Assembly: GCA_015231175.1 (NCBI GenBank)
Contig: JADGBZ010000007.1
Coordinates: 1,846-65,845 of the forward strand
Reading direction: 5' to 3'
Length of the DNA stretch: 64,000 nt
DNA from: Magnetococcales bacterium
Lineage (GTDB): Bacteria > Pseudomonadota > Magnetococcia > Magnetococcales > DC0425bin3
This document shows, piece after piece, positions 9,407 to 63,381 of this stretch. How positions within the stretch are numbered: the first letter of the stretch is position 1; each line of letters starts with the position of its first letter. A program made the position numbers and the translations under genes. The notes under the pieces are model-generated. The model saw nothing but the letters and a program-made list of their open reading frames with translations. It ran no database searches and was not told the DNA's origin.

Positions 9407-9456
9407 CATTCCATCCTTGACTTGCGCTTCTTTTGTCCGAGAGGTGGCTGTTGTTC

Positions 9457-11103
9457 ATGTGTCGAACATTGATGAAAATAATCACAGGATTCATGGTTTT
9501 ATTCATGATGGTGGCGCCTGCCCTGGTTCAGGGACAAGAGCCTGATTCGGTTTATCTGAGAGGAAAGCATGTTCCTTTTGATCAGGCTTTGTTACAGGCG
9601 CATAGAGGAGATGCGGAAGCAAAATACAGTGTAGGTTGGTTTTATATAGATAAAAACGATAAAAAAAATGGTATATATTGGATCAGAAGTGCCGCCATGG
9701 CTGGTTATGTACCTGCCATGGAGGATCTGCCATTTCAGTTGTTGCATTCGATTTATCCCCGCCACGATACTCTTGTGGAGGTTGAATCTGTTGGATGGGC
9801 TCTGAAATCACTTAAGATTAACCCGGATTGCTGGGGTGCCATGGTGGTTATGGCTGGCTATTACCGTTTGGGGTGGGGATTTTCCAGCAACATCAAATTG
9901 GCGAAAGAGTGGGAAGATAAAGCGATACGACTGGGGGGTGCGAAAGCTGCCATTCATTTGGCGTTTTTTAATTGGCCAAAAAATGAGGTGGTATATGATC
10001 CCCATAGGACATTATATTTTCTGAAAAAAGCGTCGGAAGATAACGATTCGTTAGCTCAGGCGCTTCTTGGCCAGTATTATGCGGGCTCTGATTTATTTAA
10101 ATTTAATCCCATTCCACTCAATCCTGACCAATCCCGTTATTGGTTGGAAAAGGCGTTTCAAGCGGGTGAAGGAGGGGGAGCGTTTTGGTTGGGTAAGCTC
10201 TATTATCATGGGAGCGGGGGGTATCCCCGGGATCTGGTCGAGGCCAAGTCCTGGTTTGAGCGTATACCCCGTCTTTATGCAAGAGCAAAATTTCTCTTGG
10301 CAACGCTCTACTGGTCTGGCGTTCCCGGCGCCCCTCCCGATCAGGCAAAAGCCATGGCTTTGTTCCAGCAGGCGGCGGAAGAGAAGAGTGCGCGCGCTCA
10401 GTTTGCCATGGGGCAACTGCATCGTGGGGGATATCTGGGCGGCAAGCCTGATATGACCCAGGCTTATCTCTGGTATCGCAAGGCTGCCAGGAACGCATAT
10501 CCACCAGCAATGACCATGCAGGGTCTCATGAGCCTGAAGGGTGATGGTATTCTGGCCGATCCAAAAGGGGCTGTGTCGCTTTTGCAGGCAGCCGCTGCCG
10601 AAGGAGAGGAAAATGCCCTGTATTGGCTTGGCGTCATGTCCCAGGTTGGCTTGGGTGTTGACAAGAGTTTGTCCCGGGCGCGCACCTGGTTTTTGCGTGG
10701 CGCCGAGGCTGGGGAGGCGCGATCCATGGTCAAACTATCCCTCGACCTGTTTGCGGGCAAAGGGGGGGCGCAGGAGCTTCCTCTTGCCTACCATTGGGCC
10801 AAAAAGGCGGCGCAGAGTGGTTTGCCTCAGGGGCTCTGCTGGGCGGGAACCTTGTTGTATTTTGGTGTTGGCACGCCGCCCGATCCGGAGCAGGCCAGGG
10901 TTTGGTTGCGGCAAGGTTCGGCTGCCGGCATGGAGCCGTGTACGCGCGTTTTGACGGCAGCCTCCCCCAAAACGCCAGGAGACACCGGTATTCGGCCACC
11001 CCTGGTGGAGGCCGTGGCTGCGGATTTATCTAAGGCCATGGATGGGGAGATGGATCACCCCTATCTCCCCATATCGTCCCATTTGGAGGTGTTGCCAAAA
11101 TGA
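9457..11103 (+). CDS. secreted Sel1-like repeat (SLR/TPR-like) protein, paralogue 1
   Basis: ORF track 9433..11103 trimmed to ATG 9457 (GAGGTGG upstream), 548 aa. Signal peptide MKIITGFMVLFMMVAPALVQG. Multiple Sel1 units (A-x-W-x-x-KAA-x-x-G pattern, e.g. AYLWYRKAARNAYPPAM, ARTWFLRGAEAGEARSM). Confidence 0.85.
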   Translation: MCRTLMKIITGFMVLFMMVAPALVQGQEPDSVYLRGKHVPFDQALLQAHRGDAEAKYSVGWFYIDKNDKKNGIYWIRSAAMAGYVPAMEDLPFQLLHSIYPRHDTLVEVESVGWALKSLKINPDCWGAMVVMAGYYRLGWGFSSNIKLAKEWEDKAIRLGGAKAAIHLAFFNWPKNEVVYDPHRTLYFLKKASEDNDSLAQALLGQYYAGSDLFKFNPIPLNPDQSRYWLEKAFQAGEGGGAFWLGKLYYHGSGGYPRDLVEAKSWFERIPRLYARAKFLLATLYWSGVPGAPPDQAKAMALFQQAAEEKSARAQFAMGQLHRGGYLGGKPDMTQAYLWYRKAARNAYPPAMTMQGLMSLKGDGILADPKGAVSLLQAAAAEGEENALYWLGVMSQVGLGVDKSLSRARTWFLRGAEAGEARSMVKLSLDLFAGKGGAQELPLAYHWAKKAAQSGLPQGLCWAGTLLYFGVGTPPDPEQARVWLRQGSAAGMEPCTRVLTAASPKTPGDTGIRPPLVEAVAADLSKAMDGEMDHPYLPISSHLEVLPK

Positions 11104-11124
11104 CCCGAAAGGATGCAAACTTCG
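10107..11124 (+). repeat. 1018-bp segmental duplication, copy 1 (3' two-thirds of SLR gene 1 plus 21 nt past the stop)
   Basis: Aligns without gaps to 11791-12808 (offset 1684 nt). I count 3 mismatches by eye (10266, 11031, 11072). Confidence 0.9.
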
Positions 11125-11140
11125 AGGTGGGCTGTTGTTT

Positions 11141-12787
11141 ATGTATCGAACATTGATGAAAGTAATCACAGGATTTATGGTTTTGTTTATGATGGTGGCG
11201 CCCGCCTTGGTCCAGGGGAGAGAACCTGATTTTGTCATTCTTGGCGAGAAACATGTTCCTTTTGATCAGGCTTTATTGTTGGCGCACGGGGGAGATGTGG
11301 AGGCCCAATATCGTATTAGTCTTCTATATTCTACAAATAAAAACAATAACAAAATAAGTTTATATTGGATGAGAAGGGCTGCTATGGCTGGATATGTGCC
11401 TGCTATGGAATATCTTGTGTTTTATTTGTTCAGCACGATCTATCCCAATCATGATTTTCTCTTGGAGGTGGAGGTTATAGGTTGGGCACAGAAAACCCTG
11501 GCCGTGAAAGCGGATAGTTGGGAGATCATGATGGACATGGCAGTCTTTCATCATCATGGATGGGGTGTGTCAAGAAACGAAAGGTTGGCCAAAATGTGGG
11601 AAGAGTCGGCGTTACGGGTTGGCGGTGCTCAAGCTGCGTTCTTTCTGTCAACCTCCCATGCCCGGGATGGTGTCCTGGATCACGATCCTGATAAACTTCT
11701 GCATTTACTGACCTATGCGGCAGAAGGTAATTACCTTGTTGCACAGGTGTTTCTCGGAAAATATTTTGCAGGGAAGTTATTCAAGAAGGATCCCATTCCA
11801 CTCAATCCTGACCAATCCCGTTATTGGTTGGAAAAGGCGTTTCAAGCGGGTGAAGGAGGGGGAGCGTTTTGGTTGGGTAAGCTCTATTATCATGGGAGCG
11901 GGGGGTATCCCCGGGATCTGGTCGAGGCCAAGTCCTGGTTTGAGCGTATGCCCCGTCTTTATGCAAGAGCAAAATTTCTCTTGGCAACGCTCTACTGGTC
12001 TGGCGTTCCCGGCGCCCCTCCCGATCAGGCAAAAGCCATGGCTTTGTTCCAGCAGGCGGCGGAAGAGAAGAGTGCGCGCGCTCAGTTTGCCATGGGGCAA
12101 CTGCATCGTGGGGGATATCTGGGCGGCAAGCCTGATATGACCCAGGCTTATCTCTGGTATCGCAAGGCTGCCAGGAACGCATATCCACCAGCAATGACCA
12201 TGCAGGGTCTCATGAGCCTGAAGGGTGATGGTATTCTGGCCGATCCAAAAGGGGCTGTGTCGCTTTTGCAGGCAGCCGCTGCCGAAGGAGAGGAAAATGC
12301 CCTGTATTGGCTTGGCGTCATGTCCCAGGTTGGCTTGGGTGTTGACAAGAGTTTGTCCCGGGCGCGCACCTGGTTTTTGCGTGGCGCCGAGGCTGGGGAG
12401 GCGCGATCCATGGTCAAACTATCCCTCGACCTGTTTGCGGGCAAAGGGGGGGCGCAGGAGCTTCCTCTTGCCTACCATTGGGCCAAAAAGGCGGCGCAGA
12501 GTGGTTTGCCTCAGGGGCTCTGCTGGGCGGGAACCTTGTTGTATTTTGGTGTTGGCACGCCGCCCGATCCGGAGCAGGCCAGGGTTTGGTTGCGGCAAGG
12601 TTCGGCTGCCGGCATGGAGCCGTGTACGCGCGTTTTGACGGCAGCCTCCCCCAAAACGCCAGGAGACACCGGTATTCGGCCACCCCTGGTGGAGGCCGTG
12701 GCTGCGGATTTATCCAAGGCCATGGATGGGGAGATGGATCACCCCTATCTCCCCACATCGTCCCATTTGGAGGTGTTGCCAAAATGA
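11141..12787 (+). CDS. secreted Sel1-like repeat (SLR/TPR-like) protein, paralogue 2
   Basis: ORF track 11042..12787 trimmed to ATG 11141 (GAGGTGG upstream), also 548 aa. Signal peptide MKVITGFMVLFMMVAPALVQG. C-terminal 331 aa differ from paralogue 1 at 2 residues. Confidence 0.85.
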   Translation: MYRTLMKVITGFMVLFMMVAPALVQGREPDFVILGEKHVPFDQALLLAHGGDVEAQYRISLLYSTNKNNNKISLYWMRRAAMAGYVPAMEYLVFYLFSTIYPNHDFLLEVEVIGWAQKTLAVKADSWEIMMDMAVFHHHGWGVSRNERLAKMWEESALRVGGAQAAFFLSTSHARDGVLDHDPDKLLHLLTYAAEGNYLVAQVFLGKYFAGKLFKKDPIPLNPDQSRYWLEKAFQAGEGGGAFWLGKLYYHGSGGYPRDLVEAKSWFERMPRLYARAKFLLATLYWSGVPGAPPDQAKAMALFQQAAEEKSARAQFAMGQLHRGGYLGGKPDMTQAYLWYRKAARNAYPPAMTMQGLMSLKGDGILADPKGAVSLLQAAAAEGEENALYWLGVMSQVGLGVDKSLSRARTWFLRGAEAGEARSMVKLSLDLFAGKGGAQELPLAYHWAKKAAQSGLPQGLCWAGTLLYFGVGTPPDPEQARVWLRQGSAAGMEPCTRVLTAASPKTPGDTGIRPPLVEAVAADLSKAMDGEMDHPYLPTSSHLEVLPK

Positions 12788-17392: not shown

Positions 17393-17440
17393 TCTTCCGT
17401 GAATTTTGAACGCATGTGCTGACAACACAAGAACTGTGCC

Positions 17441-20302
17441 ATGGATACTGACCTGGATCTTGATATTTTTCGGCAAATTCTTGAAAAGAGCTCCTATGGT
17501 ATCATTGTTCTTGATCAGGTCTCCAAAGTTGTATTCTGGAATCGCTGGATGGAAAAAGCGTCACGCATTCCCGCCGCTGGTGTTGTCGGGCAGGTATTTA
17601 CAGACGTTTTTCCAGATTTGCTCGGTACCCGTATTGCGCGTGGCATTGAAAACGCCCTCTCCCAGGGATTGCCCACCACCCTCTCCCACAAGTTGACCCA
17701 TCGGCCCTTTCCTCTCTTTCCTCCTGCTGCCGGGCGGGAAGCGGACGAACGCATGAGCCAACACGTTCTGATCAGTGGCATACGCGCCCGGGACCGGACT
17801 TTTTATTGTACCATCCAGATCCAGGACATTACCGACACCGTCTCCCGTGAACACATATTGCGTGAACAGACCGGGGAGTTGCGTTTGGCCAAGGAGATGG
17901 CACAGAGTGCCAGCCAAGCAAAGGGGGACTTTCTGGCCAATATGAGTCATGAGATTCGCACCCCGATGAACGCCATCATTGGCATGACGCACCTGGCCAT
18001 GCAAACCGATCTGAATCCCAGGCAACTCGATTACCTGACCAAGATTCAATACTCCTCCCAGTCCCTGCTTGGCATCATCAACGATATTCTCGATTTTTCC
18101 AAAATCGAGGCGGGCAAACTGAAGATGGAGTCCGTCGCTTTCCACCTGGATGAGGTTTTGCACAACGTCTCCAACCTGATGACGATCAAAACCGATGAAC
18201 AGGGGCTGGAATTTTGTTTCCACGTTGCCAAGGATCTTCCTCTGGGTCTGGTGGGCGATCCGCTGCGCCTGGGGCAGGTTTTGGTCAATTTGACCAGCAA
18301 TGCCGTCAAGTTTACCCGTGCGGGAGAGATCATTCTGTCCGTCGAATTGGAGGCGTTGACCGAGGAGACGGTGACGATTCATTTCAGTGTCAAGGACAGC
18401 GGCATTGGCATGACTCCAGAACAGATCGCCGGGTTGTTCCGACCCTTTACCCAGGCTGACAGCTCAACGACCCGAAAATTTGGCGGTACGGGTCTTGGTC
18501 TTTCCATCTGCCGGCGCTTGGTTCAGATGATGGGAGGAAACATCTGGGTCGAGAGTCAATCTGGGCTTGGCAGCACCTTCCATTTCAACGCAACGTTTGG
18601 ACGCGCCAACAAGGATCGCCGCCGGTTTCGTTTGCCCGACGATCGATATGTGGGTTTGCGCGTTTTATTGGCGGATGACAATGCTGCGTCGCGCGAAATT
18701 CTGCAACATGCCTTGGAGTCTTTTTCCTTCAAGGTTACCCCTGTGGCTTCTGGTGCCGAGGCCATTGCCGAGTTGGAAAAAGCCCGACATGCCCGGCCCT
18801 TTGACATGGTGTTCGTGGATTGGAAAATGCCGGAGATGGATGGCATTCGCACCACGGAGGAGATCTCCAGACTTTTTCCCACCCAACGCATGCCCAAGGT
18901 GATCATGGTGACCGCCTACGGTCGGGAGGAGGTGCTGCATGCTGCCAAAAGTGTCCATCTCAATTCAATTTTGATCAAACCCGTCAGCCTCTCCCTGTTG
19001 TTCGACACCATTCTGGCCGCTTTGGGGGAAAATGAGCGTGCCATCACCAACCCGCTCCAGACGAGCAGAAATGAGTTGGTACCCCTCCAGTTGTCACCCC
19101 TCCAGCAGAAGATGCACCCCTTGCAGGGCGCCAAAATATTGCTGGTTGAGGATAACGAGATCAATCAGCAGGTGGCGGGGGAACTTCTCGACATGGTGGG
19201 GTTGCAGGTGCGTATCGCCTCCAACGGGCGGCAAAGCCTCATCGCCCTGGCAGAGGAGTCGTTTGATGCCGTGCTGATGGATATTCAAATGCCGGAGATG
19301 GATGGTTATGAAGCCACCCGCAAAATTCGGGAAAATCCAGCCTGGACAACTCTGCCCATCATCGCCATGACGGCCAATGCCCTGGCCGGGGATCGGGAAA
19401 AATGCCTGGCCGTGGGTATGAATGAACATATCGCCAAACCCATTGATCCCCGTGTTCTTTACAGTACCCTTACCCGTTGGATCAAGCCTCCGTTGCCAAC
19501 CGTTGAGCAACCGGTGGTGGCGCAGGCGCCGCGACCTGAACGAACCCAACCGGAACCTGTTGATCACCTGGTATCGCAAGCGACTGAATATAAAGGCATG
19601 GAACCGGATGTCACCCTTCAAGCAACTGAATATAAAAATATGGAGCCGGATGTCACTCTTTTGCCGGAATCCATTCCCGGTTTTGATCTTTCTGTTGGGC
19701 TGAAATATGTGGGTGGCAACAAGAAACTTTACCGGAAACTATTGCTGGATTTTCGGCGCACCCAATGGGATGCAGCCGAGAAGGTTCATCAGGGCATGAC
19801 ATCGGGAGAGATCCATGAGACGCAGCGCCGGGTCCACACCATCAAAGGTATTGCCGGCACACTGGGGGCTTTGGAGTTGCAGGATGTGGCAAAACATTTG
19901 GAAGTTTCCCTGAAGAACCATGACCGCGAACAATCCGCATCCTTGCTCAAGCCTTTCCAAAGTTCCTTGCAAGGTGTCATGCACGCTCTTGCCGTTTTGG
20001 ACTCTCAGGAAACTCCCGTCGATCCGCCCCATGTTGTGAAAGGATCCAAGGAAGGCCATCATGATGGGCCTCTTGATCGAAATGCTTTGGAGTCTGTCAC
20101 AACCCTTTGTCAACAATTGGCCGCATGGCTCGATGAGGGTGACGTTCGCGCCAAAAGCACTCTGGAACAACTCAACAAATGCCTTCCCCCGGCCCATAGG
20201 CAGGTGGTCGGCCTGGTGGCTGAAAAAATGGGCGATTATGATTTTGACGGTGCCAGGGACGCCTTGGTGCAATGGGCCTCATTCATGAAAATATCCCTCT
20301 GA
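17441..20302 (+). CDS. hybrid sensor histidine kinase (PAS-HisKA-HATPase-REC-REC-HPt)
   Basis: 953 aa. H-box [15 protein letters not shown]. ATPase boxes DSGIGM and GGTGLGLSI. Two receivers ([21 protein letters not shown]). C-terminal HPt [11 protein letters not shown]. Confidence 0.9.
19577..19660 (+). repeat. in-frame 42-bp tandem duplication (2 x 14 aa) in the REC2-HPt linker of the hybrid kinase
   Basis: [14 protein letters not shown] / [14 protein letters not shown]. 6 nt differences, three of them synonymous. Confidence 0.85.
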
Positions 20303-33518: not shown

Positions 33519-33967
33519 GGGGATGGACCTCTTGTCTGTACCGTTCGGTGAGGTGTTTCATCATCATTGTTTTTTGCCGCCCGATGCAGCCCATGTTAAC
33601 AAAGATCAATTTGTGCTCAAAAGGTATTTCTGACAGCGCTTCCGTCATTGTTGTCCAGCCAAAAATGGCAACATAGGCCATATATGTCCAGATATCCGTA
33701 GGGAAGGGTTGGGATCCGTCGGGTTGTATTTTTACTTAAGATATTGAAATTTTTAATTTTTATGTTGCATGTTAACTTTGGCACAATTTGTGGGATAGGG
33801 GTGGTACCGGGATGCGCCATGACTGAGGAGACGGGAACAGGCCATGGCGCGACATTCGGGCGGATCAAATGAGTCGAAAAGGGTGACAGAGGAGACTGCC
33901 TTGCCAGAGTGGTTGGCCGTCTTGGGGATGCCTGTTTGTGACTGTGCGGTACATTGGAGCATTTGAC

Positions 33968-34177
33968 ATGAACTTTCCAGCGATCAATTCGGCTGCGTCA
34001 TCCGGCGCCGCCAAAGCGGCGACAGGATCCTCCAGTCTGTTGAAGTTTGCCGTACAATCCCATTTGATCAAGGGATTGGGCATGGGAGCCGGGATGAGCC
34101 TTGGCGTGGGTGTGTGGGTACTCGGGATTGCCGGGATGGGATACTGGCTCTACCGGAAATATGTACGTCTTTACTGA
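33968..34177 (+). CDS. small membrane protein with Gly-Leu/Gly-Met repeat helix (Mms6/MamG/MamD-like LG motif), paralogue 1
   Basis: ORF track 33938..34177 trimmed to ATG 33968 (GGAG 8 nt upstream), 69 aa. Ala/Ser-rich N-terminus, then KGLGMGAGMSLGVGVWVLGIAGMGYWLYRKYVRLY. GC3 about 64% by hand count. Confidence 0.65.
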   Translation: MNFPAINSAASSGAAKAATGSSSLLKFAVQSHLIKGLGMGAGMSLGVGVWVLGIAGMGYWLYRKYVRLY

Positions 34178-34188
34178 GGGTGACATTC

Positions 34189-34389
34189 ATGATCGCGCAA
34201 AATTCAATGATGGCGGCGAGCAAAGGGGCTGCCGCAAATTCGTCGCTCTCCTTGTCAACCGTTGCGACGGCCCAGTTTATCAAGGAGGCAGGCCTTGGCC
34301 TGGGCATGGGGTTGGGGATCGGAGCTTTTCTGGCGGTTGGTTCCGCCATCGTGGGATGGATGATTTGGCGAAAATACTTGCGGGAGTGA
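34189..34389 (+). CDS. small membrane protein with LG-repeat helix, paralogue 2
   Basis: ORF track 34114..34389 trimmed to ATG 34189 (GAGGG upstream), 66 aa. EAGLGLGMGLGIGAFLAVGSAIVGWMIWRKYLRE. Aligns along its length with paralogue 1. Confidence 0.65.
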   Translation: MIAQNSMMAASKGAAANSSLSLSTVATAQFIKEAGLGLGMGLGIGAFLAVGSAIVGWMIWRKYLRE

Positions 34390-34470
34390 AACTTGACAGG
34401 TGGGGGCCATCGACTGTCGAGCATCATCGATCATTGCGGAAATGGCCATACGCCGTTTTGGAGAGGTCCA

Positions 34471-34761
34471 ATGAATTCTAGAACTTTAGTTATCGCATAT
34501 GATGAAGCAGGCTTGTTTGGCGCACTCGGGCGGGGTGTAACATCTCGGCAAGGAGCGGTTGCAGTCGATGCCGCACGAAGAGCCGAAAAAGGAAGAATGA
34601 CCTTGGCCGGGTTCCATCAGGGGAGAGCTGTCATCATGGTCATGGCCCTCCTCCTGGCGCCATTGGTTATCCTCGGGATCGCAGGTATCCTGGTCTGCGG
34701 CGGATGCAGAGCGATTGGCAAGATGGGTGCGTGTCGTCATGAAAACGTCCGTAAACGGTGA
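34471..34761 (+). CDS. small hypothetical membrane protein with Cys-rich C-terminal tail
   Basis: ORF track 34393..34761 trimmed to ATG 34471 (GGAGAGG 5 nt upstream), 96 aa. C-terminal TM AVIMVMALLLAPLVILGIAGILV followed by CGGCRAIGKMGACRH. Confidence 0.45.
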   Translation: MNSRTLVIAYDEAGLFGALGRGVTSRQGAVAVDAARRAEKGRMTLAGFHQGRAVIMVMALLLAPLVILGIAGILVCGGCRAIGKMGACRHENVRKR

Positions 34762-35299
34762 TGTTAAAAGTTCTTTGGGTACATGCCGATCGGTCACGGT
34801 CACATCCATTTCGGAGATCGGTTGGCACGATACGGATATCATTCTGCCGGACATCGAGGCCGCAGGCGGACCGGGGGCCGATCAGTGGGAGGCGTCGTGG
34901 CATGCCGACAATGCCGCCGGAAGTGCCAGTCTGATCGAGGTCGGGTCGTTGGATGGTCGGAAGCATAGATTCCTCCTCGATTGTGGCTGGCATGAGGGAT
35001 ACATGCGTTCCCGCTTTGCGGCAGCCGGCGTCGATGGCATGCTGGAACTCTCTATCTATGGCCTGTACGGCGGTCTGCATATCGCCCCCTTTGGCCCGTT
35101 GACCCCGCAGCAGGAGGAGGCGATCGTGGATCTGCAACGCTTTGGTTTCCTCAGGATTGTCCCCAACCACTGCACCGGCCTGCCGGCAGTCCGCAAAATG
35201 ATCGAACTGGGGTATCCTGTCCTGAGGGGCTCGGGCCAGGTCGGTTCTGTTCCCCCTTTGATGGCAGGCCATGGAGACCGGGTAGTTTTTGGGTCATGA
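34739..35299 (+). CDS. degenerate MBL-fold-like protein (C-terminal region resembles COG1237 hydrolases, HxHxDH motif absent)
   Basis: ORF track 34715..35299. 186 aa from ATG 34739, overlapping the previous ORF by 23 nt. GGLHI...IVPNHCTG resembles the C-terminal GGFHL...P-x-HCTG region of that family. No metal-binding His cluster seen. Confidence 0.4.
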   Translation: MKTSVNGDVKSSLGTCRSVTVTSISEIGWHDTDIILPDIEAAGGPGADQWEASWHADNAAGSASLIEVGSLDGRKHRFLLDCGWHEGYMRSRFAAAGVDGMLELSIYGLYGGLHIAPFGPLTPQQEEAIVDLQRFGFLRIVPNHCTGLPAVRKMIELGYPVLRGSGQVGSVPPLMAGHGDRVVFGS

Positions 35300-35383: not shown

Positions 35384-35815
35384 ATGCGTATCGCCGTTAC
35401 CAGTCAAAACAAATACTCCATCACCGAACATGCTGGGCAGTGTCGCCGCTTTTGGCTGTTTGATGTGGAAAACAACGTTGTGTCCGGAGAACGCCTGGTG
35501 GAGCTGGCCCCCGAGGAGAGTTTTCATAACAATGGAATCATGGGGCCGGACCATCCGCTCTTTGGCATGCACGTCCTGATCACCAGAAGCATGGGGCAAG
35601 GTTTGAAGAATCGGTTGGCAGGAATGGGTGTGCAAGGTGTCGTCACGTCCCTGGAAGATCCAAAGTGCGCTGCCATCCTGTTTCTGGAGGGAAAGTTGCC
35701 TTCAATATCCGCACCGGACACCCGGTGCAACGGCCATGGTCACGGCCATGGTAACGGGTGTGGACCCGGACCCGGTCTCATGAACAAGCATATTGTTATC
35801 GAGCCAAAATCCTGA
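35384..35815 (+). CDS. NifX/NifB-type (dinitrogenase FeMo-cofactor-binding fold) domain protein with His-Gly tail
   Basis: ORF track 35351..35815 trimmed to ATG 35384 (GAGGTG upstream), 143 aa. MRIAVTSQN...ITEHAGQCRRFWLFDV...VLITRSMGQGLKNRLAGMGVQGV fits the fold pattern. Tail is CNGHGHGHGNGCGPGPG. Confidence 0.65.
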   Translation: MRIAVTSQNKYSITEHAGQCRRFWLFDVENNVVSGERLVELAPEESFHNNGIMGPDHPLFGMHVLITRSMGQGLKNRLAGMGVQGVVTSLEDPKCAAILFLEGKLPSISAPDTRCNGHGHGHGNGCGPGPGLMNKHIVIEPKS

Positions 35816-35949
35816 TATGTCCGTTTTTCGGTACCCCCACCGCGCAAGAGCGTGCATGGCCTTCGGTGTGGTGGGGGTCCGGAAAATCGCCCATGGTCCA
35901 GATTTTGATGGGTTCGTTGTCGGAAGAGGGTTGGTTGGAGAGAGGCCGC

Positions 35950-37542
35950 ATGATTGATCTCCGGTTAAAGGCTACCTGGGGCCATTGGATGGGTTCGTCA
36001 CGAGGAGATGGTATTGTTCAAACATTAAAAGTCATCGTCATTGTTGCGTGTATTATCTCTCTCTTTTTTTCATGGCAATATGATCAGGGACTCAACCTGG
36101 CGGATGAAGGATTTCTTTGGTACGGCGCCCAACGTGTCCTGCTGGGGGAGGTGCCGCTGCGTGATTTCATGGCCTATGATCCCGGACGCTACTACGGATT
36201 GTCCATCCTGATGGGATGGTGGGGGGACAATGGCATCGTGGCCATGCGGGGTGGCGTGGAAATGTTTCGTGCCATGGGGTTGCTGATAGGTTTGCAGGTG
36301 CTGGTTGGCACCATCAGGGTACGGAGCACCCGTTTCCTCATCCTCTCCGCCATGACGTTGCTGACGTGGATGTCCATCCACAACTTCAAGGCATTTGATA
36401 CGACGACATCCCTGGCGCTGGTCGCTGCGTTGACGTTTTTGGTGCGGAAACCGGTGGCGCAACGTTACTTTGTGACCGGCTTGTGTGTGGGCGTGGCGGC
36501 TATTTTTGGCCGCAATCACGGTGTGTACGGCGTGGTTGGCGCCATGGTCGCCATGGTCTGGTTGCACCACGGGAAGGAAAATATAGGTTGTTTTGGCAAA
36601 GGGGTTATGTATTTTATAACGGGTGTGGTTGTTGGGTGCCTGCCCATGCTGTTCATGGTGTTCTGGGTTCCCGGCTTTGCCAAGGCGCTTTGGGACAGTA
36701 TATTGTTCATGTTGTCATTCGGGGCCACCAACATTCCTCTTCCCGTTCCATGGCCATGGCTGGTCGATTTTGCCTCGATCTCCACGCTGCAATCCATTCA
36801 TGGGGTCTTGGTGGGGTTGTTCTTTGTTGGCATGATTCTTTTTAGCATGTTCTCCATCATGTGGGTGTTTTGGCAGAAGAGGAGGGGAGAACGTGTCTCT
36901 CCTCTGGTGGCTGCTGCGGCATTTTTGTCACTGCCCTATGCCCACTATGCGTTTTCTCGTGCCGATGTGGTTCATCTCTCCATGGGCATCTTTCCCATGT
37001 TGATCGGGTGTCTCGCTTTTTTGGCCCGGAGGCCGGGCCGGGCCAGGTGGCCTCTGATGCTGGTGTTGTGTGTCACCAGCATCGGGACGACCCTTCCCTA
37101 CTACCAGGGTTGGGGGTGCCTTCTCAACAGCAAGTGCGTGGTTGTGGAGGTTTCCGGCTCCAGACTCAAGGTCTCTGCCCATACGGCATCCACGATTCAG
37201 CGGCTTCGCCATCTCGTGGTGCAACAGGCCACGGGGAATCGTTCCTTCGTTGTCGCCCCCTATTGGCCCGGCGCCTACGCCTTGTTCGATCGCCAATCTC
37301 CCATGTGGGAGATCTACGCCCTGTTCAAGCGTGATCGGGCGTTCGAGGAGGCCGAAATCAAGCGAATCATGGCAGCCCAACCGGCCTTTATCCTGCTGTC
37401 CGAGATGGCCATCGATGGCCAGGAGGCGCTGCGCTTCATGTATACCCACCCTCTGACCTACCAATACATTCAGGAGAATTATGTCTTGGGCGCTTCGTAT
37501 GGGCAGCTCAGGGTGTATGACCCGAAGGTTGATGGGGGGTAA
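35950..37542 (+). CDS. polytopic membrane protein, GT-C-type glycosyltransferase-like (ArnT/PMT-like)
   Basis: ORF track 35758..37542. ATG 35950 has GGAGAGAGG upstream (530 aa). First-loop motif DEGFLWYGAQRVLLGEVPLRDF is typical of GT39/83-like enzymes. More than 10 hydrophobic segments. Confidence 0.5.
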   Translation: MIDLRLKATWGHWMGSSRGDGIVQTLKVIVIVACIISLFFSWQYDQGLNLADEGFLWYGAQRVLLGEVPLRDFMAYDPGRYYGLSILMGWWGDNGIVAMRGGVEMFRAMGLLIGLQVLVGTIRVRSTRFLILSAMTLLTWMSIHNFKAFDTTTSLALVAALTFLVRKPVAQRYFVTGLCVGVAAIFGRNHGVYGVVGAMVAMVWLHHGKENIGCFGKGVMYFITGVVVGCLPMLFMVFWVPGFAKALWDSILFMLSFGATNIPLPVPWPWLVDFASISTLQSIHGVLVGLFFVGMILFSMFSIMWVFWQKRRGERVSPLVAAAAFLSLPYAHYAFSRADVVHLSMGIFPMLIGCLAFLARRPGRARWPLMLVLCVTSIGTTLPYYQGWGCLLNSKCVVVEVSGSRLKVSAHTASTIQRLRHLVVQQATGNRSFVVAPYWPGAYALFDRQSPMWEIYALFKRDRAFEEAEIKRIMAAQPAFILLSEMAIDGQEALRFMYTHPLTYQYIQENYVLGASYGQLRVYDPKVDGG

Positions 37543-55790: not shown

Positions 55791-55908
55791 CGGCGCGGGT
55801 GTTTTGCCGATCCCATGGAAATGATTGCGCTTTTCCCGGAAGAAGCGGGCCTGACGGCGCGGGTGTTTTGCCGCTTCCCTAGAAATGATTGCGCTTTTCC
55901 CGGAGGTG
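55781..55908. repeat. 64-bp tandem duplication (2 units, about 87% identical) spanning the rlmL and gloB stop codons
   Basis: 55781-55844 and 55845-55908 align without gaps (8 mismatches). Unit 1 contains the rlmL stop (55788-55790). Unit 2 contains the gloB stop (55879-55881). Confidence 0.85.
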
Positions 55909-56646
55909 GGCAAAGAGAGCGACCGGAGTCAGGTGGCCCTTGTCGACTTTGGCGGCAAATCGGGGATCGTCACAGCGCAGGAAGGGATTGAACTGTTTCT
56001 CCCAGTGCAGGTCAACCGGCAGGGTTGGGGCGCCATCGTCCGTCTGACGGCAGACGGTCTCGAATTGCTGTTGCAGATCCGGATTGTCCGGTTCCAGGGC
56101 CTGGGCAAAACGCAGGTTGCCGAGGGTATACTCGTGGGCGGGAAAGAGACGGGTGTGGTCCGGGAGTGAACGGATTTTCAGCAGGCTGTGCCACATGTGC
56201 GCAGGCGTTCCCTCGAAGAGACGGCCACAACCGTAACGGAACAGGGTGTCACCGACGAAGAGGGCATCGGCAACGTGATAGACGACGTGACCCGTTGTGT
56301 GACCAGGGGTGGTCATGACCCGAAGTTGCAGATGGCCAAGGGGAAGAGAGGGTTCATCGCCGACGGGAAGACTCAATGCTGGCAGCCGGGGTGCATCGGC
56401 GCGGGCCCCGATCACCACCGGGGCGTGCCGGGCGCAAAGCCCTTTGACGCCGCCGATATGATCGAGATGATGGTGCGTCAAGAGAATGTGGGAGAGACGC
56501 AGAGATCGCTCGGTCAAAAAACGGTTGACTGGTTCATCCTCGCCAGGATCAACGACGGCGACGCTGTCTGGTCCTGTGGGAAAAATCCAGATATGGTTAT
56601 CCTTCAGAGCGGGCACAGCGTGAACCGGCAGGCTTATTGCGTTCAT
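55879..56646 (-). CDS. gloB: hydroxyacylglutathione hydrolase (glyoxalase II)
   Basis: ORF track 55879..56670 trimmed to ATG 56646 (255 aa). THHHLDHIGG motif. FVGDTLFRYGCGRLFEG. Confidence 0.9.
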   Translation of the reverse strand: MNAISLPVHAVPALKDNHIWIFPTGPDSVAVVDPGEDEPVNRFLTERSLRLSHILLTHHHLDHIGGVKGLCARHAPVVIGARADAPRLPALSLPVGDEPSLPLGHLQLRVMTTPGHTTGHVVYHVADALFVGDTLFRYGCGRLFEGTPAHMWHSLLKIRSLPDHTRLFPAHEYTLGNLRFAQALEPDNPDLQQQFETVCRQTDDGAPTLPVDLHWEKQFNPFLRCDDPRFAAKVDKGHLTPVALFAHLREKRNHF

Positions 56647-56687
56647 GGCTACTCTCAGGTCAACAAGCAACGGGTCTCCTTCATATC

Positions 56688-57452
56688 ATGAACCTCGAAG
56701 CCATTCGATTGCAAAACTGGTATGCCACGGCCCAGGGTCGTACAGTGGCCCGTGTGATCGGAGGGGGGGTGGAGCGATGGATGCGCCCCCATGCCACGGG
56801 GAACACGTTCGGCTTTGGCTTCGTTCAGCCCTACATGGAGTTCATCATTTCCGGTCGGGGGGGTTCCTTCGGGGCGTCGCCGGCGGAGATGGGCGTTGTT
56901 CCCTGGCCGAACGGGTCGCCCAATCGCATGGCCCTGGTACGCCCCAATGCCTTGCCCTACCCGGATGGTCACTTTGACCGGGTGTTTATGGTACACATCC
57001 TGGAAGGGGCGGATTCGCCGCGTGAGACGCTGCGCGAAGTCTGGCGGGTGATGAAGCCGGGTGGACGCCTCTTCATTGTGGCGCCGAATCGGGGCGGGTT
57101 TTGGGCGCGGCGGGATACCACCCCCTTCGGATGGGGGCGCCCCTTTTCGCCGCGGCAGATCCAGGAGTTGCTGGAAGCCTCTTTTTTTGTGCTGCGCCAA
57201 GCCAGGTTTGCCCTGTTCGTGCCCCCTTTTCCGGGGCGGCGGATTTTGCGCTCGGCAGCAACCTGGGAAAAGGTTGGGGAACGATGGTTTGCCCGGTTTG
57301 GCGGGGTCATTCTGAGCGATGCGGAAAAGGTGGTCCACGCCGTCACCCCTTTGTTGGAAAAACCCTTTTGTCTGCGCCAGCCGAGAAGGGTCGTCCTGCC
57401 TTTGGCTGGCAATCGGGACGCCGTCAATTCAAGGAGAATCGAGCATGACTGA
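56688..57452 (+). CDS. class I SAM-dependent methyltransferase-like protein
   Basis: ORF track 56637..57452 trimmed to ATG 56688 (254 aa). FDRVFMVHILEGADSPRETLREVWRVMKPGGRLFIVAPN is typical of Methyltransf_11-like proteins found divergent from gloB in alphaproteobacteria. Confidence 0.7.
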   Translation: MNLEAIRLQNWYATAQGRTVARVIGGGVERWMRPHATGNTFGFGFVQPYMEFIISGRGGSFGASPAEMGVVPWPNGSPNRMALVRPNALPYPDGHFDRVFMVHILEGADSPRETLREVWRVMKPGGRLFIVAPNRGGFWARRDTTPFGWGRPFSPRQIQELLEASFFVLRQARFALFVPPFPGRRILRSAATWEKVGERWFARFGGVILSDAEKVVHAVTPLLEKPFCLRQPRRVVLPLAGNRDAVNSRRIEHD

Positions 57453-58335
57453 TGCTTTCATGATCAACCGGTTCATGGATGAACTTTTGGTGGAACACGG
57501 GCTCTCGGCCAACACCCTGGAGGCCTATCGCCAGGATTTGGAGGGTTTATCCGCATTTTTAGCCCTCCGTGGCGGTGATCTGTTGCGGGCCGATCGCGAG
57601 ACGCTTCTCTGCTATCTCAGCGCATTGACTGCCCGGGATATGGCGGCCAGTTCCGTGGCCCGCAAGCAGTCGGCGTTTCGGCGCTTTTATCGGCATCTGG
57701 TTTTGCGCGACGAGCGGGAGGATGATCCCACCCATCTGTTGGACTCCCCCCATCTGCAACGCCATTTGCCGCAAATCCTGAATGAAGAGGAGGTCGAATC
57801 CCTGCTGAACGCCCCGGATCGCAGCACCGAGTTGGGTCTGCGGGATGCGGCCATGCTGGAACTGCTCTATGCCACGGGTCTGCGCGTATCCGAGTTGATC
57901 TTTCTGGAAACGGACAGCATCGAACCGGGTTTCGGTTTTGTGCGGGTGGTGGGGAAGGGAGACAAGGAACGCCTGGTGCCGGTCGGAGAGGCGGCCCTGG
58001 ATATTGTGGAAAAGTATCGGCGCTCGGCGCGCCTGCTCCTGTTGGCGGGAAGCCCGACCCGCGCCCTGTTCGTGACAGCCCGGGGCGGTCCCATGACCCG
58101 GCAAAATTTTTGGTATGTCATCCGCCGTCATGCCGTCATGGCAGGCATCACCAAACCTTTGTCACCTCATCTGCTGCGCCACTCGTTTGCCTCACATCTG
58201 CTCAACCATGGCGCCGACCTGCGGGCCGTGCAGATGATGCTTGGCCATGCCGATATCTCGACCACGGAAATCTATACCCACCTGGCCCAGGATCGCCTGA
58301 AACAGATTCATCGGCAACTGCATCCAAGGGCCTGA
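57445..58335 (+). CDS. xerD: site-specific tyrosine recombinase XerD
   Basis: ORF track 57319..58335 trimmed to ATG 57445 (296 aa). Collinear with E. coli XerD, including LYATGLRVSEL, HLLRHSFASHLL, LGHADISTTEIYTH and the LHPRA terminus. Confidence 0.9.
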   Translation: MTDAFMINRFMDELLVEHGLSANTLEAYRQDLEGLSAFLALRGGDLLRADRETLLCYLSALTARDMAASSVARKQSAFRRFYRHLVLRDEREDDPTHLLDSPHLQRHLPQILNEEEVESLLNAPDRSTELGLRDAAMLELLYATGLRVSELIFLETDSIEPGFGFVRVVGKGDKERLVPVGEAALDIVEKYRRSARLLLLAGSPTRALFVTARGGPMTRQNFWYVIRRHAVMAGITKPLSPHLLRHSFASHLLNHGADLRAVQMMLGHADISTTEIYTHLAQDRLKQIHRQLHPRA

Positions 58336-58341
58336 TCGCAC

Positions 58342-59244
58342 GTGAAATTCATCGACCCAAGAATCGACTTTGCCTTCAAGAGGATCTTCGGCAGCGAAGA
58401 TGCGAAGGATATTTTGATCAGTTTTCTTGAGAGCCTCCTGGAACTTGAGGGTGAACGCCGCATTGTTGAACTGACGATCCTGGACCCCTTTTTGGCGCCG
58501 AAGGTCCGTGAACTGAAATACTCGGTACTGGATGTCAAATGCCGGGATCATCGTGGCGTTTCCTATATTGTGGAGATGCAGATTCAGAAGACGGCTGCTT
58601 TCCTGAAACGGATCCAGTACAACGCCGCCAAGGCCTACGTTCACCAGATTGAAAAAGGCGAAGATTATCCCAAGCTCAACCAGGTGATTGCCATCACCAT
58701 CACCGATTTTCCCCTGTTCGATGGTTTCGACCACTGCGTCTCGCGTCATGAGACCCGAGAGGCGGTCACCGGGCAGACTTTTCTTCAGGAAATCCTTCAC
58801 TGTTTTATCGAGTTGCCAAAATTCAACAAATCCATCGGGGAACTGACCGACGTATTGGACCAGTGGATCTGGTTCATCAGGTTTGCCGGTTCCGTGGAGG
58901 CAATTCCGGATCGGATACGAGTTGAGCCAATCCGCCACGCCTTTGCAAGGGCCACCGTGGCCAATATGACAGCAGAGGAGTATGAACTTTACGACAAAGC
59001 CGGCATTGCCATCGCGGATGCCCAGGGAGCGGTTCAGTTGGCACGCCAGGAAGGGCGTCAGGAAGGGCGTCAGGAAGGGCTTCGCGAAGGTGAAAGACGC
59101 ACTCTGTATCGACTGCTTGAGAAGCGGTTTGGCTCGGTTCCGGAGTGGGTGCATGCCAGACTTGCCCAGGCTGATCTTGCAGCCCTGGGGAGGTGGACAG
59201 AGAACGTCCTGGAGGCCAAGGTGATTGACGAAGTTTTTTTGTAG
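58342..59244 (+). CDS. Rpn/YhgA-like PD-(D/E)XK recombination-promoting nuclease (putative transposase family)
   Basis: 300 aa, GTG start. Signature N-terminus MKFIDPRIDFAFKRIFG, nuclease core LDVKC...IVEMQIQK, C-terminal QEGRQEGRQEGLREGE repeat. Confidence 0.8.
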   Translation: MKFIDPRIDFAFKRIFGSEDAKDILISFLESLLELEGERRIVELTILDPFLAPKVRELKYSVLDVKCRDHRGVSYIVEMQIQKTAAFLKRIQYNAAKAYVHQIEKGEDYPKLNQVIAITITDFPLFDGFDHCVSRHETREAVTGQTFLQEILHCFIELPKFNKSIGELTDVLDQWIWFIRFAGSVEAIPDRIRVEPIRHAFARATVANMTAEEYELYDKAGIAIADAQGAVQLARQEGRQEGRQEGLREGERRTLYRLLEKRFGSVPEWVHARLAQADLAALGRWTENVLEAKVIDEVFL

Positions 59245-59366
59245 GTTACATTGGTTTGACAGGGTCAATGGTACCAATTTTTTTTTGCTTTCTGTTTCCT
59301 TTTCAGCCTGGATTCAGCTTGTCTCTCCAGACTCCTCTCCAACGTAAACTTTATTGGAGAAGGAAA

Positions 59367-59996
59367 ATGCGCGAAAAAGAACAAACCGTTTCCGTGTGGG
59401 ATCCTCTTGTACGTATCTGCCATTGGGGTATGGTGTTTGGTGTGAGTTTGGCTTTTCTTGCGGAGGACGATTTCATGTTCCTCCATGTGCTGGCTGGGCA
59501 TTTGATACTTGGACTGGTGGTTTTCCGTCTTGTCTGGGGGGTTGTTGGCCCACGGCATGCCCGATTTTACACATTCGTCCGTGGACCAAGGCGGATCCTG
59601 TCCTGCGTGCGATCCATTCTGAAGGGTAAGCCGGAGCACTATGTTGGCCATAATCCGGCAGGCGGAGGTATGGTGGTTGCGATTCTTCTGGTTCTCCTGT
59701 TGACGGTTTTCCTGGGAATGGCTGCCTACGACACCAAGGAATTTCATGGCATCCTGTGGCCCATGACTGCCGGGTTGGGCATGGGTGTGGTCAAACTTCT
59801 TGGATTCCTGCATGAACTCTTCGCCAATTTGTTGCTGATTCTGGTGGTCCTGCATGTGACGGGGGTGTTGGTGGCGACGTTGCAGCATCGTGAAAACCTG
59901 GTCAAAAGCATGTTCACTGGCCGTAAACGCGCTCCTCTTACCCTGGGCATTGTAATCCTTGGCATGACTCTGATCTCGCGAAGTATGCCACTCTGA
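59367..59996 (+). CDS. cytochrome b561-type (Ni/Fe-hydrogenase b-type cytochrome subunit family) membrane protein
   Basis: ORF track 59256..59996 trimmed to ATG 59367 (GGAGAAGGA upstream), 209 aa. Four TM helices with conserved His (RICHWG, HVLAGH, HNPAGG, LHELF...LHV). Confidence 0.75.
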   Translation: MREKEQTVSVWDPLVRICHWGMVFGVSLAFLAEDDFMFLHVLAGHLILGLVVFRLVWGVVGPRHARFYTFVRGPRRILSCVRSILKGKPEHYVGHNPAGGGMVVAILLVLLLTVFLGMAAYDTKEFHGILWPMTAGLGMGVVKLLGFLHELFANLLLILVVLHVTGVLVATLQHRENLVKSMFTGRKRAPLTLGIVILGMTLISRSMPL

Positions 59997-60043
59997 CGCC
60001 ATCAAGGGTTCCTACAACGAACATGCGGTGAGCATTCCGGGCC

Positions 60044-60385
60044 ATGGCCGCTGGGAAGATTGACCTGCGATCGATGTTTTTCAGGGGATGGAGGCTTCCT
60101 TTCCTTTTGCCGGTGCTCTGCATGTTGCATCCTGTCATCGGTCAGACCGACGACGATCACGAAGATGTCAGACGCCTGGTGCAAGCAGGGATCATCCTTC
60201 CCCTGGAAAAAATTTTAAAAGCCAGTCAAAACTTTCAACGGGGACGTCTGTTGGAGGTCAAGTTGAAGCGTCGTCACGGTGGGTATATCTACGAACTGGA
60301 GTTGGTGACCCAACAAGGTATTGTCTGGGAATTGGAGTTTGATGCAACCAACGGTGTCCTCCTTGAACAGGAAAAGGAGAAGTAA
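60044..60385 (+). CDS. PepSY domain protein (periplasmic)
   Basis: 113 aa. Signal-like N-terminus. GRLLEVKLKRRHGGYIYELELVTQQGIVWELEFDATNG fits the PepSY pattern. Confidence 0.7.
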   Translation: MAAGKIDLRSMFFRGWRLPFLLPVLCMLHPVIGQTDDDHEDVRRLVQAGIILPLEKILKASQNFQRGRLLEVKLKRRHGGYIYELELVTQQGIVWELEFDATNGVLLEQEKEK

Positions 60386-60388
60386 CGT

Positions 60389-61054
60389 TTGCGTTTTTTA
60401 CTGGTAGAAGATGATGGCACCCTCGCTGCCACCATCAAAAAAGATTTAAACCATGCCGGGTATGCCGTGGACATCGTACATGATGGTGTGGAAGCCGAAT
60501 TCATGGGGGAGTCCGAACCCTATGATCTGGTGATTCTGGATCTGGGTTTGCCAGGCAGGCATGGTTTGGAGGTTTTAAAAAATTGGCGTCAGCATGGCCA
60601 TATCATGCCGGTATTGATTCTGACCGCCTGGGACGCCTGGCACGAACGGGTGGATGGCTTCAAGGCCGGGGCAGACGATTATCTCGGTAAGCCATTTCAC
60701 ATTCAGGAGCTTGTTGCCCGTATCAACGCCCTTTTGCGTCGCAGCCATACGACCACCAAGGGAACGTTGACCTTGGCGGGTATCACCTTGAACGAAGAAA
60801 CCCAGGAGGTCCATCTGCCATCGGGAGAAACGAAGTCTCTGACAGGAACCGAGTTTCGTCTGCTCCGTTATTTCATGTTTCATGCCGATGAAGTTCTCTC
60901 AAAAACCAGATTGACCGAACATATCTACGAATACGATGCCGACAAGGACAGTAATGTGATCGAGGTGTACGTCAAACGACTGCGCCGACTTGTTGGACAG
61001 GAACGCATTGAGACCCGCCGTGGTCAGGGCTATGTTTTTCGGGCGGCGCCATGA
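60389..61054 (+). CDS. OmpR-family response regulator
   Basis: 221 aa, TTG start. Receiver (LLVEDD, VILDLGLPG, YLGKPF) plus winged-helix output (LTGTEFRLLRYF, RGQGYVF). Confidence 0.9.
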   Translation: MRFLLVEDDGTLAATIKKDLNHAGYAVDIVHDGVEAEFMGESEPYDLVILDLGLPGRHGLEVLKNWRQHGHIMPVLILTAWDAWHERVDGFKAGADDYLGKPFHIQELVARINALLRRSHTTTKGTLTLAGITLNEETQEVHLPSGETKSLTGTEFRLLRYFMFHADEVLSKTRLTEHIYEYDADKDSNVIEVYVKRLRRLVGQERIETRRGQGYVFRAAP

Positions 61055-62385: not shown

Positions 62386-62427
62386 CGAATTTTCAGCCCA
62401 AGTCAAGTGACGATTGGCAACTCCATT
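62342..62427. repeat. 43-bp tandem duplication (2 units, 3 mismatches) of the 3' end of the kinase gene
   Basis: 62342-62384 and 62385-62427. The junction falls inside the TAG stop codon (62383-62385). Confidence 0.9.
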
Positions 62428-62599
62428 CTGTATTCGTACCCATGGATGCGCCCGCGAATGAAAATGTGGTTGAGACAATCGAACCTGATTGCGGTGGAAA
62501 CAAATGGATGTTATGGATAAACCATCGGGCGAGGGGATCTTGTCGTGCTGCGTCGTGACAAGTGGGTTCCCCCACGGGTGGGTGATCGTTGCGTAAGGG

Positions 62600-63265: not shown

Positions 63266-63381
63266 AAGAAGAACGTTTGATGCCATCGGATGGGGTTGCC
63301 GGGTAGAGGAAGATCGTTTGATGCCATCGGATGGGGTCACTGGGTAGAGGGAGATCGTTTTATGCCATCGTTCGATATTGT
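63259..63381 (+). repeat. 41-bp tandem repeat x3 that triplicates the yajQ ribosome-binding site and start codon
   Basis: Units at 63259, 63300 and 63341. Each carries GTAGAGGAAG-like SD plus ATGCCATCG. Units 1 and 2 encode 8-codon mini-ORFs (MPSDGVAG*, MPSDGVTG*). Unit 3 holds the real start. Confidence 0.9.

Follow-up and report, generated by a model that had tools for sequence, protein, structure and literature searches.

A conserved tandem pair of glycine-zipper mini-proteins in magnetotactic cocci with a possible accessory role at the magnetosome

In a genome of the Magnetococcales, the order of the magnetotactic cocci, two short open reading frames (ORFs) follow each other head to tail and encode proteins with glycine-leucine repeats that recall the magnetosome proteins Mms6, MamG, and MamD. 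Are these ORFs real genes, and do their products belong to the magnetosome? They lie in a stretch of 64,000 nucleotides (nt), here referred to as the window, on the 86.9-kb contig JADGBZ010000007.1 of a metagenome-assembled genome (MAG), and an earlier note, written from the sequence of the window, had drawn attention to the repeats; the observation made there is confirmed, and the interpretation is partly supported. We describe here that ORF1 and ORF2 form a pair of glycine-zipper mini-proteins, undescribed so far and of narrow distribution, referred to as type A and type B, respectively, which we tentatively regard as MamG/Mms5-like accessory membrane proteins. Our literature searches found no prior description of the family. 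The two genes are as follows.

33968 to 34177, plus strand: ORF1 (HQL63_02655), the type-A mini-protein gene, 69 amino acids (aa), with GGAG 8 nt 5' of the start codon and a ratio of nonsynonymous to synonymous substitution rates (dN/dS) of 0.10 against the orthologue in locus L007
34189 to 34389, plus strand: ORF2 (HQL63_02660), the type-B mini-protein gene, 66 aa, present in the deposited annotation, dN/dS of 0.13 to 0.33

Both ORFs have the hallmarks of genes. As previously noted, each has a Shine-Dalgarno (SD)-like motif of its own, GGAG at 33956 to 33959 for ORF1 and GAGGG at 34176 to 34180 for ORF2, and a good G+C content at third codon positions (GC3), 0.64 and 0.68, respectively, next to 0.62 to 0.68 for the secure genes of the window. 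Their paralogy is likewise borne out, with 40% identity over 57 aligned aa in a BLASTP comparison (E value of 0.007) and a probability of 98% (E value of 3e-13) when the type-A and type-B subfamilies were compared profile to profile with hhalign. Orthologous pairs, A followed by B, were found at at least 10 independent loci, which answers the question of conservation raised in the earlier note. Against these orthologues, the proportion of synonymous differences is 0.6 to 0.88, so that synonymous sites are near saturation, while that of nonsynonymous differences is 0.11 to 0.42, and dN/dS is 0.10 to 0.33 for the A and B genes wherever it could be computed. Since orthologues exist and saturated synonymous sites go together with few nonsynonymous changes, ORF1 and ORF2 are real paralogous genes under strong purifying selection. 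A sister assembly (L001, JADGAG010000179) differs from the window by a single base over 4,721 bases, at position 34148, which falls within ORF1 and leads to the conservative replacement L61V in the tail of the protein. The suggestion that such small proteins are missed by annotation does not apply here, as both are already in GenBank as hypothetical proteins.

How widely is the pair distributed? A HMMER scan with a profile built from ORF1 and ORF2 retrieved 6 true relatives from 1.84 billion representative proteins, and searching 5.8 billion proteins with a profile brought the family to 20 members, with two subtypes, type A (ORF1-like) and type B (ORF2-like). The A and B proteins are 63 to 77 aa long. 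In every locus recovered, A lies directly 5' of B; these loci are the window, Magnetococcus marinus MC-1 (L002), Magnetofaba australis IT-1 (L012), and those labelled L007, L010, L011, L009/L016/L017, L013, L015, L005, and L014. In the MC-1 genome (CP000471), the pair is found at about 2.065 Mb. The named carriers, MC-1, IT-1, and Magnetococcales MAGs, are all magnetotactic cocci. The pair was also found on two high-GC MAG contigs, L005 (labelled "uncultured Hyphomicrobiales") and L014, in ordinary contexts beside Nfu or ribosomal protein L36. The assemblies of these two MAGs are GCA_964344345.1 and GCA_964343675.1. The comparison of magnetotactic and nonmagnetotactic bacteria that had been proposed thus gave about 20 proteins in 5.8 billion, not widespread outside the magnetotactic cocci, and the A/B family is almost confined to this group.

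The plan that the earlier note had seen in both proteins, an Ala/Ser-rich N-terminus followed by a Gly-repeat helix and a basic aromatic tail, is indeed present in both, and the two helices quoted there, GLGMGAGMSLGVGVWVLGIAGMGYWLYRKY and GLGLGMGLGIGAFLAVGSAIVGWMIWRKY, were found in the ORF translations. In ORF1, the Ala/Ser-rich N-terminus leads into the conserved LLKFAVQSHLIKGLGMGAGM, after which come a transmembrane helix with a Gly zipper and the tail YWLYRKY, and in ORF2 a conserved motif, VA(K/T)AQFIKEAGLGLGMGLG, precedes the transmembrane helix and a WRKY tail. Among 13 type-A orthologues, the invariant pattern is MNxPAIN...VQSHxIKGLGMGxGM, with M1, N7, VQSH, and KGLGMG fixed; in 11 type-B sequences it is VAKAQFIKEAG(L/M)GLGMGLG, the stretch from V25 to G45 being nearly invariant. 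AlphaFold2, run with the family alignments, predicted a single long helix in ORF1 (residues 23 to 68) and a helix of residues 22 to 65 in ORF2, with a per-residue confidence score (pLDDT) of 80 to 90 in the membrane part and low confidence in the N-terminus. The helix is moderately hydrophobic (best 19-residue hydropathy of 1.67 for ORF1, at residues 37 to 55, and 1.89 for ORF2) and has about 29% Gly in its core, placed at alternate positions so that both faces carry a glycine zipper. The tails, YRKYVRLY in ORF1 and WRKYLRE in ORF2, contain no and one acidic residue, respectively, in agreement with the earlier statement that an acidic C-terminus is missing. A search of PDB sequences found no relatives, and none of the Pfam Gly-zipper families (Gly-zipper_Omp, YMGG, and similar) was matched by eight members of the family, even at E values up to 10.

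Adjacent small peptides with GxxxG-type motifs are also typical of class IIb bacteriocins, and a two-peptide (class IIb-like) bacteriocin, or an exported peptide pair, had been put forward as an alternative, together with a check for a double-glycine leader and an export ABC transporter. This check was run, and neither was found in any locus. The N-terminus, MNFPAIN..., is conserved as part of the protein, and the genes called at the various loci include neither an ABC transporter nor a C39 peptidase nor anything like an immunity gene. In contrast to class IIb bacteriocins, A and B are a conserved chromosomal feature of Gram-negative cocci, kept by purifying selection across an order, and a C-terminal transmembrane helix with a basic tail fits a resident membrane protein; the bacteriocin explanation is effectively refuted. 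A similar size and layout are seen in the major coat proteins of the Pf3 and M13 type, which speaks for a remnant of a filamentous-phage-like element, with A and B as coat-like proteins of N-out/C-in topology and a basic tail. However, a PHROGs search matched no phage family, no phage gene adjoins the pair and no zot/pI-type gene was seen in any locus, and the pair has remained stable in divergent genomes, where its regulatory partner is conserved as well. We therefore reject a phage origin as well.

Does the resemblance to Mms6, MamG, and MamD go beyond a first impression? When 18,950 NCBIfam models were scanned against eight family members, the families matched by most of them were MamD (5 of 8), MamG (5 of 8), and Mms6 (4 of 8), with best E values of 2.6e-4 to 6e-4. 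ORF2 matched MamD (NF040916) with 18.9 bits and an E value of 7.2e-4 over profile positions 236 to 283 of 318, which is the C-terminal LG-repeat and transmembrane region; it does not qualify as a full-length MamD, and the true MamD of IT-1 scores 368 bits against the same model (cut-off of 100 bits). For Mms6 (cut-off of 200 bits), the best E value in the family was 6e-4, and neither ORF1 nor ORF2 gave a match at E values up to 0.1; for MamG/Mms5 (NF040985, cut-off of 100 bits), the best was 3.4e-4, the cut-off was not reached, and ORF1 gave no match. A weak precomputed match to PF28196 (Magnetosome_regulatory) is recorded for two homologues of type B. In a profile comparison with a verified Mms6/Mms5 alignment as the hhalign reference, the whole family scored 38.2 over 44 columns (probability of 92%), compared to 12.3 +/- 2.9 (maximum of 19.9) for column-shuffled controls, and type B alone scored 41.0 (93.5%), compared to 29.5 when reversed and 11.2 +/- 3.0 when shuffled. 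By these profile comparisons, the resemblance of A and B to Mms6/Mms5 appears specific but weak.

Closer inspection of the motifs sets A and B apart from these families to different degrees. The LGLGLGLG run never varies in the Mms6/Mms5 alignment, and W65, G66, and P67 vary little or not at all, whereas ORF2 has GLGLGMGLGIGAF and ORF1 has GLGMGAGMSLGVGVW in place of the run and WGP occurs in neither. With Mms6 (NF040917, PF28196), A and B share the GL-repeat and transmembrane core, the region that Mms6 requires for membrane association (PMC11332177); they lack its long N-terminal domain, neither tail resembles its acidic C-terminal region that interacts with magnetite and iron, and they score far below 200 bits. 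MamD/Mms7 (NF040916) is about 320 aa long and has a large repeated N-terminal domain, unlike ORF2. MamG/Mms5 (NF040985, PF28196), like A and B, is small (about 7 to 8 kDa for MamG), has an Ala/Gly-rich N-terminal part and a Gly-X repeat that runs into a single C-terminal transmembrane helix followed by an aromatic/basic patch, and has no long acidic mineral-binding tail. Even so, the repeat of A and B reads G-[LM]-G-[LMA]-G-M instead of (LG)4, AWGP is missing, the juxtamembrane motifs VQSHxIKG and AKAQFIKEAG are their own, and the two form an obligate tandem outside the mamGFDC/mms operon. No mms6 or mamGFDC operon, the setting of Mms6, MamG, and MamD, was found with the pair in the window (30 ORFs scanned) or in MC-1 (20 kb), and in IT-1 the pair is close to mamD but outside the published cluster. 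A further parallel comes from MamJ, MamD, and Mms5, in which an Ala-rich N-terminal domain is followed by a moderately hydrophobic, Gly-rich C-terminal helix and which are targeted to magnetosomes by MamF-like (Tic20-related) proteins (PMC11628618). A and B resemble these clients in domain plan and glycine-zipper motifs, although they have no sequence homology to MamJ, and a third paralogue of 150 to 163 aa, here referred to as C and found in MC-1, IT-1, L013, and L015, is closer to this plan than A and B are. That the LG and transmembrane module shares its origin with Mms6, MamG, and MamD is possible but unproven.

One genome places the pair next to known magnetosome genes. In IT-1, the gene order is a transcriptional activator (cut by an insertion sequence [IS]), a 98-aa protein, C, A, B, a CDF transporter, a DUF2202 protein, MamD, DMT, a MamA-like protein, FeoA and FeoB, and two LG-repeat proteins. 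The A/B module borders the magnetosome gene cluster, 2.2 kb from mamD, whose product is the 368-bit match mentioned above; the published description of the IT-1 cluster goes no further than this MamD, and the A and B genes are not mentioned there (PMC3934378). The best equivalog match of the CDF protein is MamB, with 124.8 bits, which is under the model cut-off and ahead of MntE, MamM, MamV, and FieF. We also observed that the CDF gene (L012, 10192 to 11445) starts on the last base of the stop codon of B, an overlap which suggests that the two are translationally coupled.

Several findings have to be set against a magnetosomal role. Adjacency to the cluster was seen in IT-1 only, within an IS-rich region; no mam families were found among 30 scanned ORFs of the window, which covers its contig except for roughly 23 kb, these ORFs matching housekeeping, chemotaxis, and signalling families only, in line with the earlier statement that no mam gene is nearby; and a 20-kb stretch of MC-1 that surrounds the pair likewise gave no mam domains. 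All of the curated cut-offs were missed, ORF2 reaching 18.9 of the 100 bits set for NF040916, and the window's own proteins have no precomputed PF28196 match. The reversed family still scores 27.0 compared to 38.2, so that about 70% of the score is retained, because GLGLG is palindromic, and type A taken alone scores 26.2 (49%), with its reversed control, at 28.0, no lower. Pairwise BLASTP of A and B against the MamD and MamD-like LG proteins of IT-1 was not significant, and the HMMER scan of 1.84 billion proteins retrieved none of Mms6, MamG, and MamD. The two high-GC MAGs, L005 and L014, are possible nonmagnetotactic carriers, and lineage restriction by itself is weak evidence that does not imply a role in magnetosomes.

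As the cut-offs were failed, the reversed score is high, AWGP and the acidic tail are missing, and the BLASTP comparison within IT-1 was not significant, we do not file A and B under Mms6, MamG, or MamD, and membership in any of the three is rejected. Of the resemblance proposed in the earlier note, the part that stands is that these families are the top match in the library; membership fails all cut-offs, and type A does no better than its reversed control. What the architecture, distribution, and IT-1 neighbourhood point to is a looser relationship, in which A and B would be MamG/Mms5-like accessory membrane proteins and candidate magnetosome or iron-handling factors. We give this reading a probability of roughly 45%.

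The genes that recur around the pair bear on both this reading and its strongest competitor. They are, by locus, as follows.

Divergent sigma-54 enhancer-binding protein (the activator), the most constant neighbour, in seven loci (MC-1, L007, L010, IT-1, L013, L015, and L016): L002, 7037 to 8440, minus strand; L007, 6026 to 7348, minus strand; L010, 566 to 1897; L012, 7833 to 8780, minus strand; L013, 4340 to 5692, minus strand; L015, 26 to 1417, minus strand; L016, 1366 to 2700, minus strand
Conserved protein of 80 to 100 aa: MC-1, L007, L010, IT-1, L013, and L016
C, the third paralogue, 150 to 163 aa, just 5' of A: L002, 9179 to 9652; L012, 9269 to 9760; L013, 6255 to 6746; L015, 1658 to 2113
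NifX-like protein: the window, L007, and L010
MBL-fold protein of the window's type: the window (decayed) and L010 (full length)
CDF transporter: L009, L011, L016, and IT-1
Ferritin-like DUF2202 protein: IT-1 and L013
Nfu: L014

The activators of MC-1, L007, and L010 are 59 to 64% identical in pairwise comparisons, and all seven module-linked activators carry the motif C-x3-SH-x5-C-x6-C in a PAS-like domain at the N-terminus, x5 being mostly [FY]-x2-P and a fourth Cys being frequently added. This motif resembles a sensor site for a metal or an Fe-S cluster. The C protein has a long, low-complexity region rich in Ala, Gly, and Lys, in which repeats like AAKAAGKGAM occur, and then a transmembrane helix at the C-terminus with a basic tail, and is of the tail-anchored type. 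Neither the activator, the commonest partner of A and B, nor C is present in the window, which retains only A and B of the module; behind them come the decayed MBL gene, the gene for the NifX-like protein, and that for a membrane protein specific to this genome. We also considered whether the C-terminal extension of the IT-1 CDF protein is NifX-like, and BLASTP and Pfam gave no support for this.

In light of these neighbours, A and B could instead be a pair in the cytoplasmic membrane that belongs to a sigma-54-controlled metal or redox stress module (with CDF efflux, a ferritin-like protein, and an Fe-S carrier-like protein) and has nothing to do with magnetosomes, the GLGLG repeat having arisen by convergence. 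The constancy of the Cys/His activator over seven loci is what this explanation would predict; the remaining neighbours are generic metal or Fe-S genes, the window and MC-1 loci lie within a housekeeping backbone, the pair occurs beside Nfu or L36 on the two high-GC contigs, and most of the profile score survives reversal of the sequence. On the other hand, the family was not found across nonmagnetotactic sequences in the search of 1.84 billion representatives, and the named carriers are magnetotactic cocci without exception. Moreover, the IT-1 module abuts mamD and its CDF protein is nearest to MamB, and the top library matches are MamD, MamG, and Mms6, with the Pfam Gly-zipper families unmatched. 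We regard this nonmagnetosomal explanation as nearly as likely as the accessory role.

If A and B are MamG/Mms5-like accessory proteins, the following picture can be drawn. They would be a heteromeric pair of about 7-kDa membrane proteins of the tail-anchored type, inserted post-translationally into the magnetosome (or cytoplasmic) membrane, which would self-associate or pair with each other through the Gly-zipper helix. Alternate Gly residues give small-residue faces all round the helix, which would suit tight helix-helix packing, and the obligate tandem suggests a hetero-oligomer. Mineral binding is unlikely, since there is no acidic tail, and A and B may rather act as accessory organizers or regulators of iron-handling membrane machinery. 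In the majority of genomes, A and B are part of a wider module that comprises the sigma-54 activator with its Cys/His-rich PAS sensor, the protein of about 90 aa, and C, joined variably by CDF, DUF2202, NifX-like, or Nfu proteins, and the constant Cys/His-PAS activator and the metal-related neighbours suggest that expression may be redox or iron responsive. An extended version of this picture, to which we would give considerably less credence and which we consider unlikely as a whole, is an accessory magnetosome module of the cocci in which A and B, C, a MamB-like CDF protein, and DUF2202 are placed under the Cys/His-PAS sigma-54 activator, at the cluster edge in IT-1 and scattered elsewhere. 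Here, A and B would reside in the magnetosome membrane, possibly brought there by MamF-like Tic20-type proteins, and tune iron delivery or crystal growth to oxygen or iron.

Is there a matching promoter? In MC-1, L007, L013, and L015, a TGGCAY-N5-NTG(A/T) element precedes the first module gene by 67 to 77 nt, and it is also present in the intergenic region of L016 beside the activator gene. The pattern derived from these module promoters occurs once in the window.

33779 to 33796, plus strand: candidate sigma-54-type -24/-12 element TGGCACAATTTGTGGGAT, 188 nt 5' of ORF1, weak

An independent position weight matrix (PWM) ranked the TGGCACAATTTGTGGGAT site only 11th of 128,000 positions, and strict scans for TGGCAC-N5-TTGCW upstream of A and B found none. 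A scan for sigma-70 promoters and terminators gave nothing over chance, and no Rfam families were found between 32.5 and 38.5 kb. With the PWM of the module promoters, the top-scoring site of the window is CATGGCACAGTTCTTGTGTTGT (17422 to 17443, minus strand), a fairly canonical sigma-54-like -24/-12 element that overlaps the start of a gene for a PAS histidine kinase encoded on the other strand. In MC-1 and in a Magnetococcales MAG, the perfect 16-nt palindrome TAGACATATATGTCTA is found in exact form (L002, 8490 to 8505, and L007, 7395 to 7410) between the divergent activator gene and the gene for the protein of about 100 aa, and it is probably the binding site of the activator. It does not occur in the window with up to 3 mismatches allowed; a loose look-alike, GGCCATATATGTCC, is located around 33674.

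Downstream of the pair, the window contains the following features.

34471 to 34761, plus strand: ORF3, 96 aa, unverified and possibly not a gene, with the SD motif GGAGAGG at 34460 to 34466, a transmembrane helix, and a CGGCRAIGKMGAC tail
34486 to 34740, minus strand: HQL63_02665, 84 aa, hydrophilic, the call of the deposited annotation opposite ORF3, with no SD motif and no homologues
34739 to 35299, plus strand: HQL63_02670, 186 aa, remnant of an MBL-fold protein that has lost its metal-binding motif through an internal deletion in frame
35384 to 35815, plus strand: NifX-like protein (Nitro_FeMo-Co domain, PF02579), 143 aa, with the Cys/His/Gly tail CNGHGHGHGNGCGPGPG
35893 to 37542, plus strand: HQL63_02680, 549 aa, polytopic membrane protein, family unassigned, outside the conserved module

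For ORF3, the description given in the earlier note is accurate, with 96 aa, a good SD motif, and a terminal transmembrane helix (hydropathy of 2.85) followed by a C-terminus that reads ...CGGCRAIGKMGACRHENVRKR; its status as a gene is unsupported. Its GC3 is 0.52 and its codon score is -0.04, compared to +0.12 for the antisense ORF, tblastn found no homologues in any A/B locus, and the exact sequence is absent from a collection of 15 billion proteins. The gap in which it sits measures 350 nt, and the same gap is just 35 nt long in the orthologous locus L010. At least one of ORF3 and HQL63_02665 is spurious.

The MBL-like remnant was recognized correctly. In a tblastn search with the 325-aa orthologue from L010 (PF00753), aa 1 to 107 aligned to 34727 to 35047 of the window (56% identity) and aa 243 to 325 aligned to 35045 to 35293 (58% identity), so that an in-frame deletion has removed about 135 aa, among them the metal motif SHEHLDH; the remnant itself has no Pfam match. 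The NifX-like assignment also held, with an E value of 9.5e-6 and 26.3 bits, exactly the gathering score of PF02579, and the database name of the protein is "dinitrogenase iron-molybdenum cofactor biosynthesis protein". Orthologues with 48 and 44% identity adjoin the pair in L007 and L010, respectively. For the 549-aa protein, the proposed GT-C-like label found no backing in Pfam, NCBIfam, or PDB sequences; no relatives were found in species-representative genomes or in other A/B loci, and its cluster at 90% identity has one member. The downstream genes that the earlier note had placed in one operon with the mini-proteins are not conserved as a set, and only the NifX-like (three loci) and MBL (two or three loci) genes recur.

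Elsewhere in the window, the region from 55879 to 63847 encodes glyoxalase II, a methyltransferase, an XerD-like integrase, and YajQ, which by eye appear to match the types of genes that flank the MC-1 pair. If this match holds, the chromosomal neighbourhood of the pair is loosely conserved, with about 20 kb of other genes intervening in the window. At 9433 to 11103 and 11042 to 12787 (both on the plus strand), there are tandem paralogues of about 560 to 580 aa with near-identical signal-like N-termini, ...RTLMK(I/V)ITGFMVLFMMVAPALVQG, for which NCBIfam matches were sub-threshold only (the best being the TPR lipoprotein AlgK). Two large ORFs of 660 and 531 aa at 11 to 3585 (plus strand) have no NCBIfam match.

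Known magnetosome genes are nearly all located within the magnetosome gene cluster, and functional work has mostly been done in Magnetospirillum; to our knowledge, little is known of the genes by which the abundant magnetotactic cocci control their crystals. Should A and B prove unrelated to magnetosomes, they would still constitute a clean, conserved two-gene family of small membrane proteins, and they would caution that GLGLG motifs alone are insufficient for homology to Mms6. If instead they are MamG/Mms5-like accessory proteins, they would provide concrete candidates, open to testing, for magnetosome factors with an accessory or regulatory role that are encoded outside the cluster, and the sigma-54 regulator, together with a MamB-like transporter and a ferritin-like protein, would add a possible circuit of environmental control.

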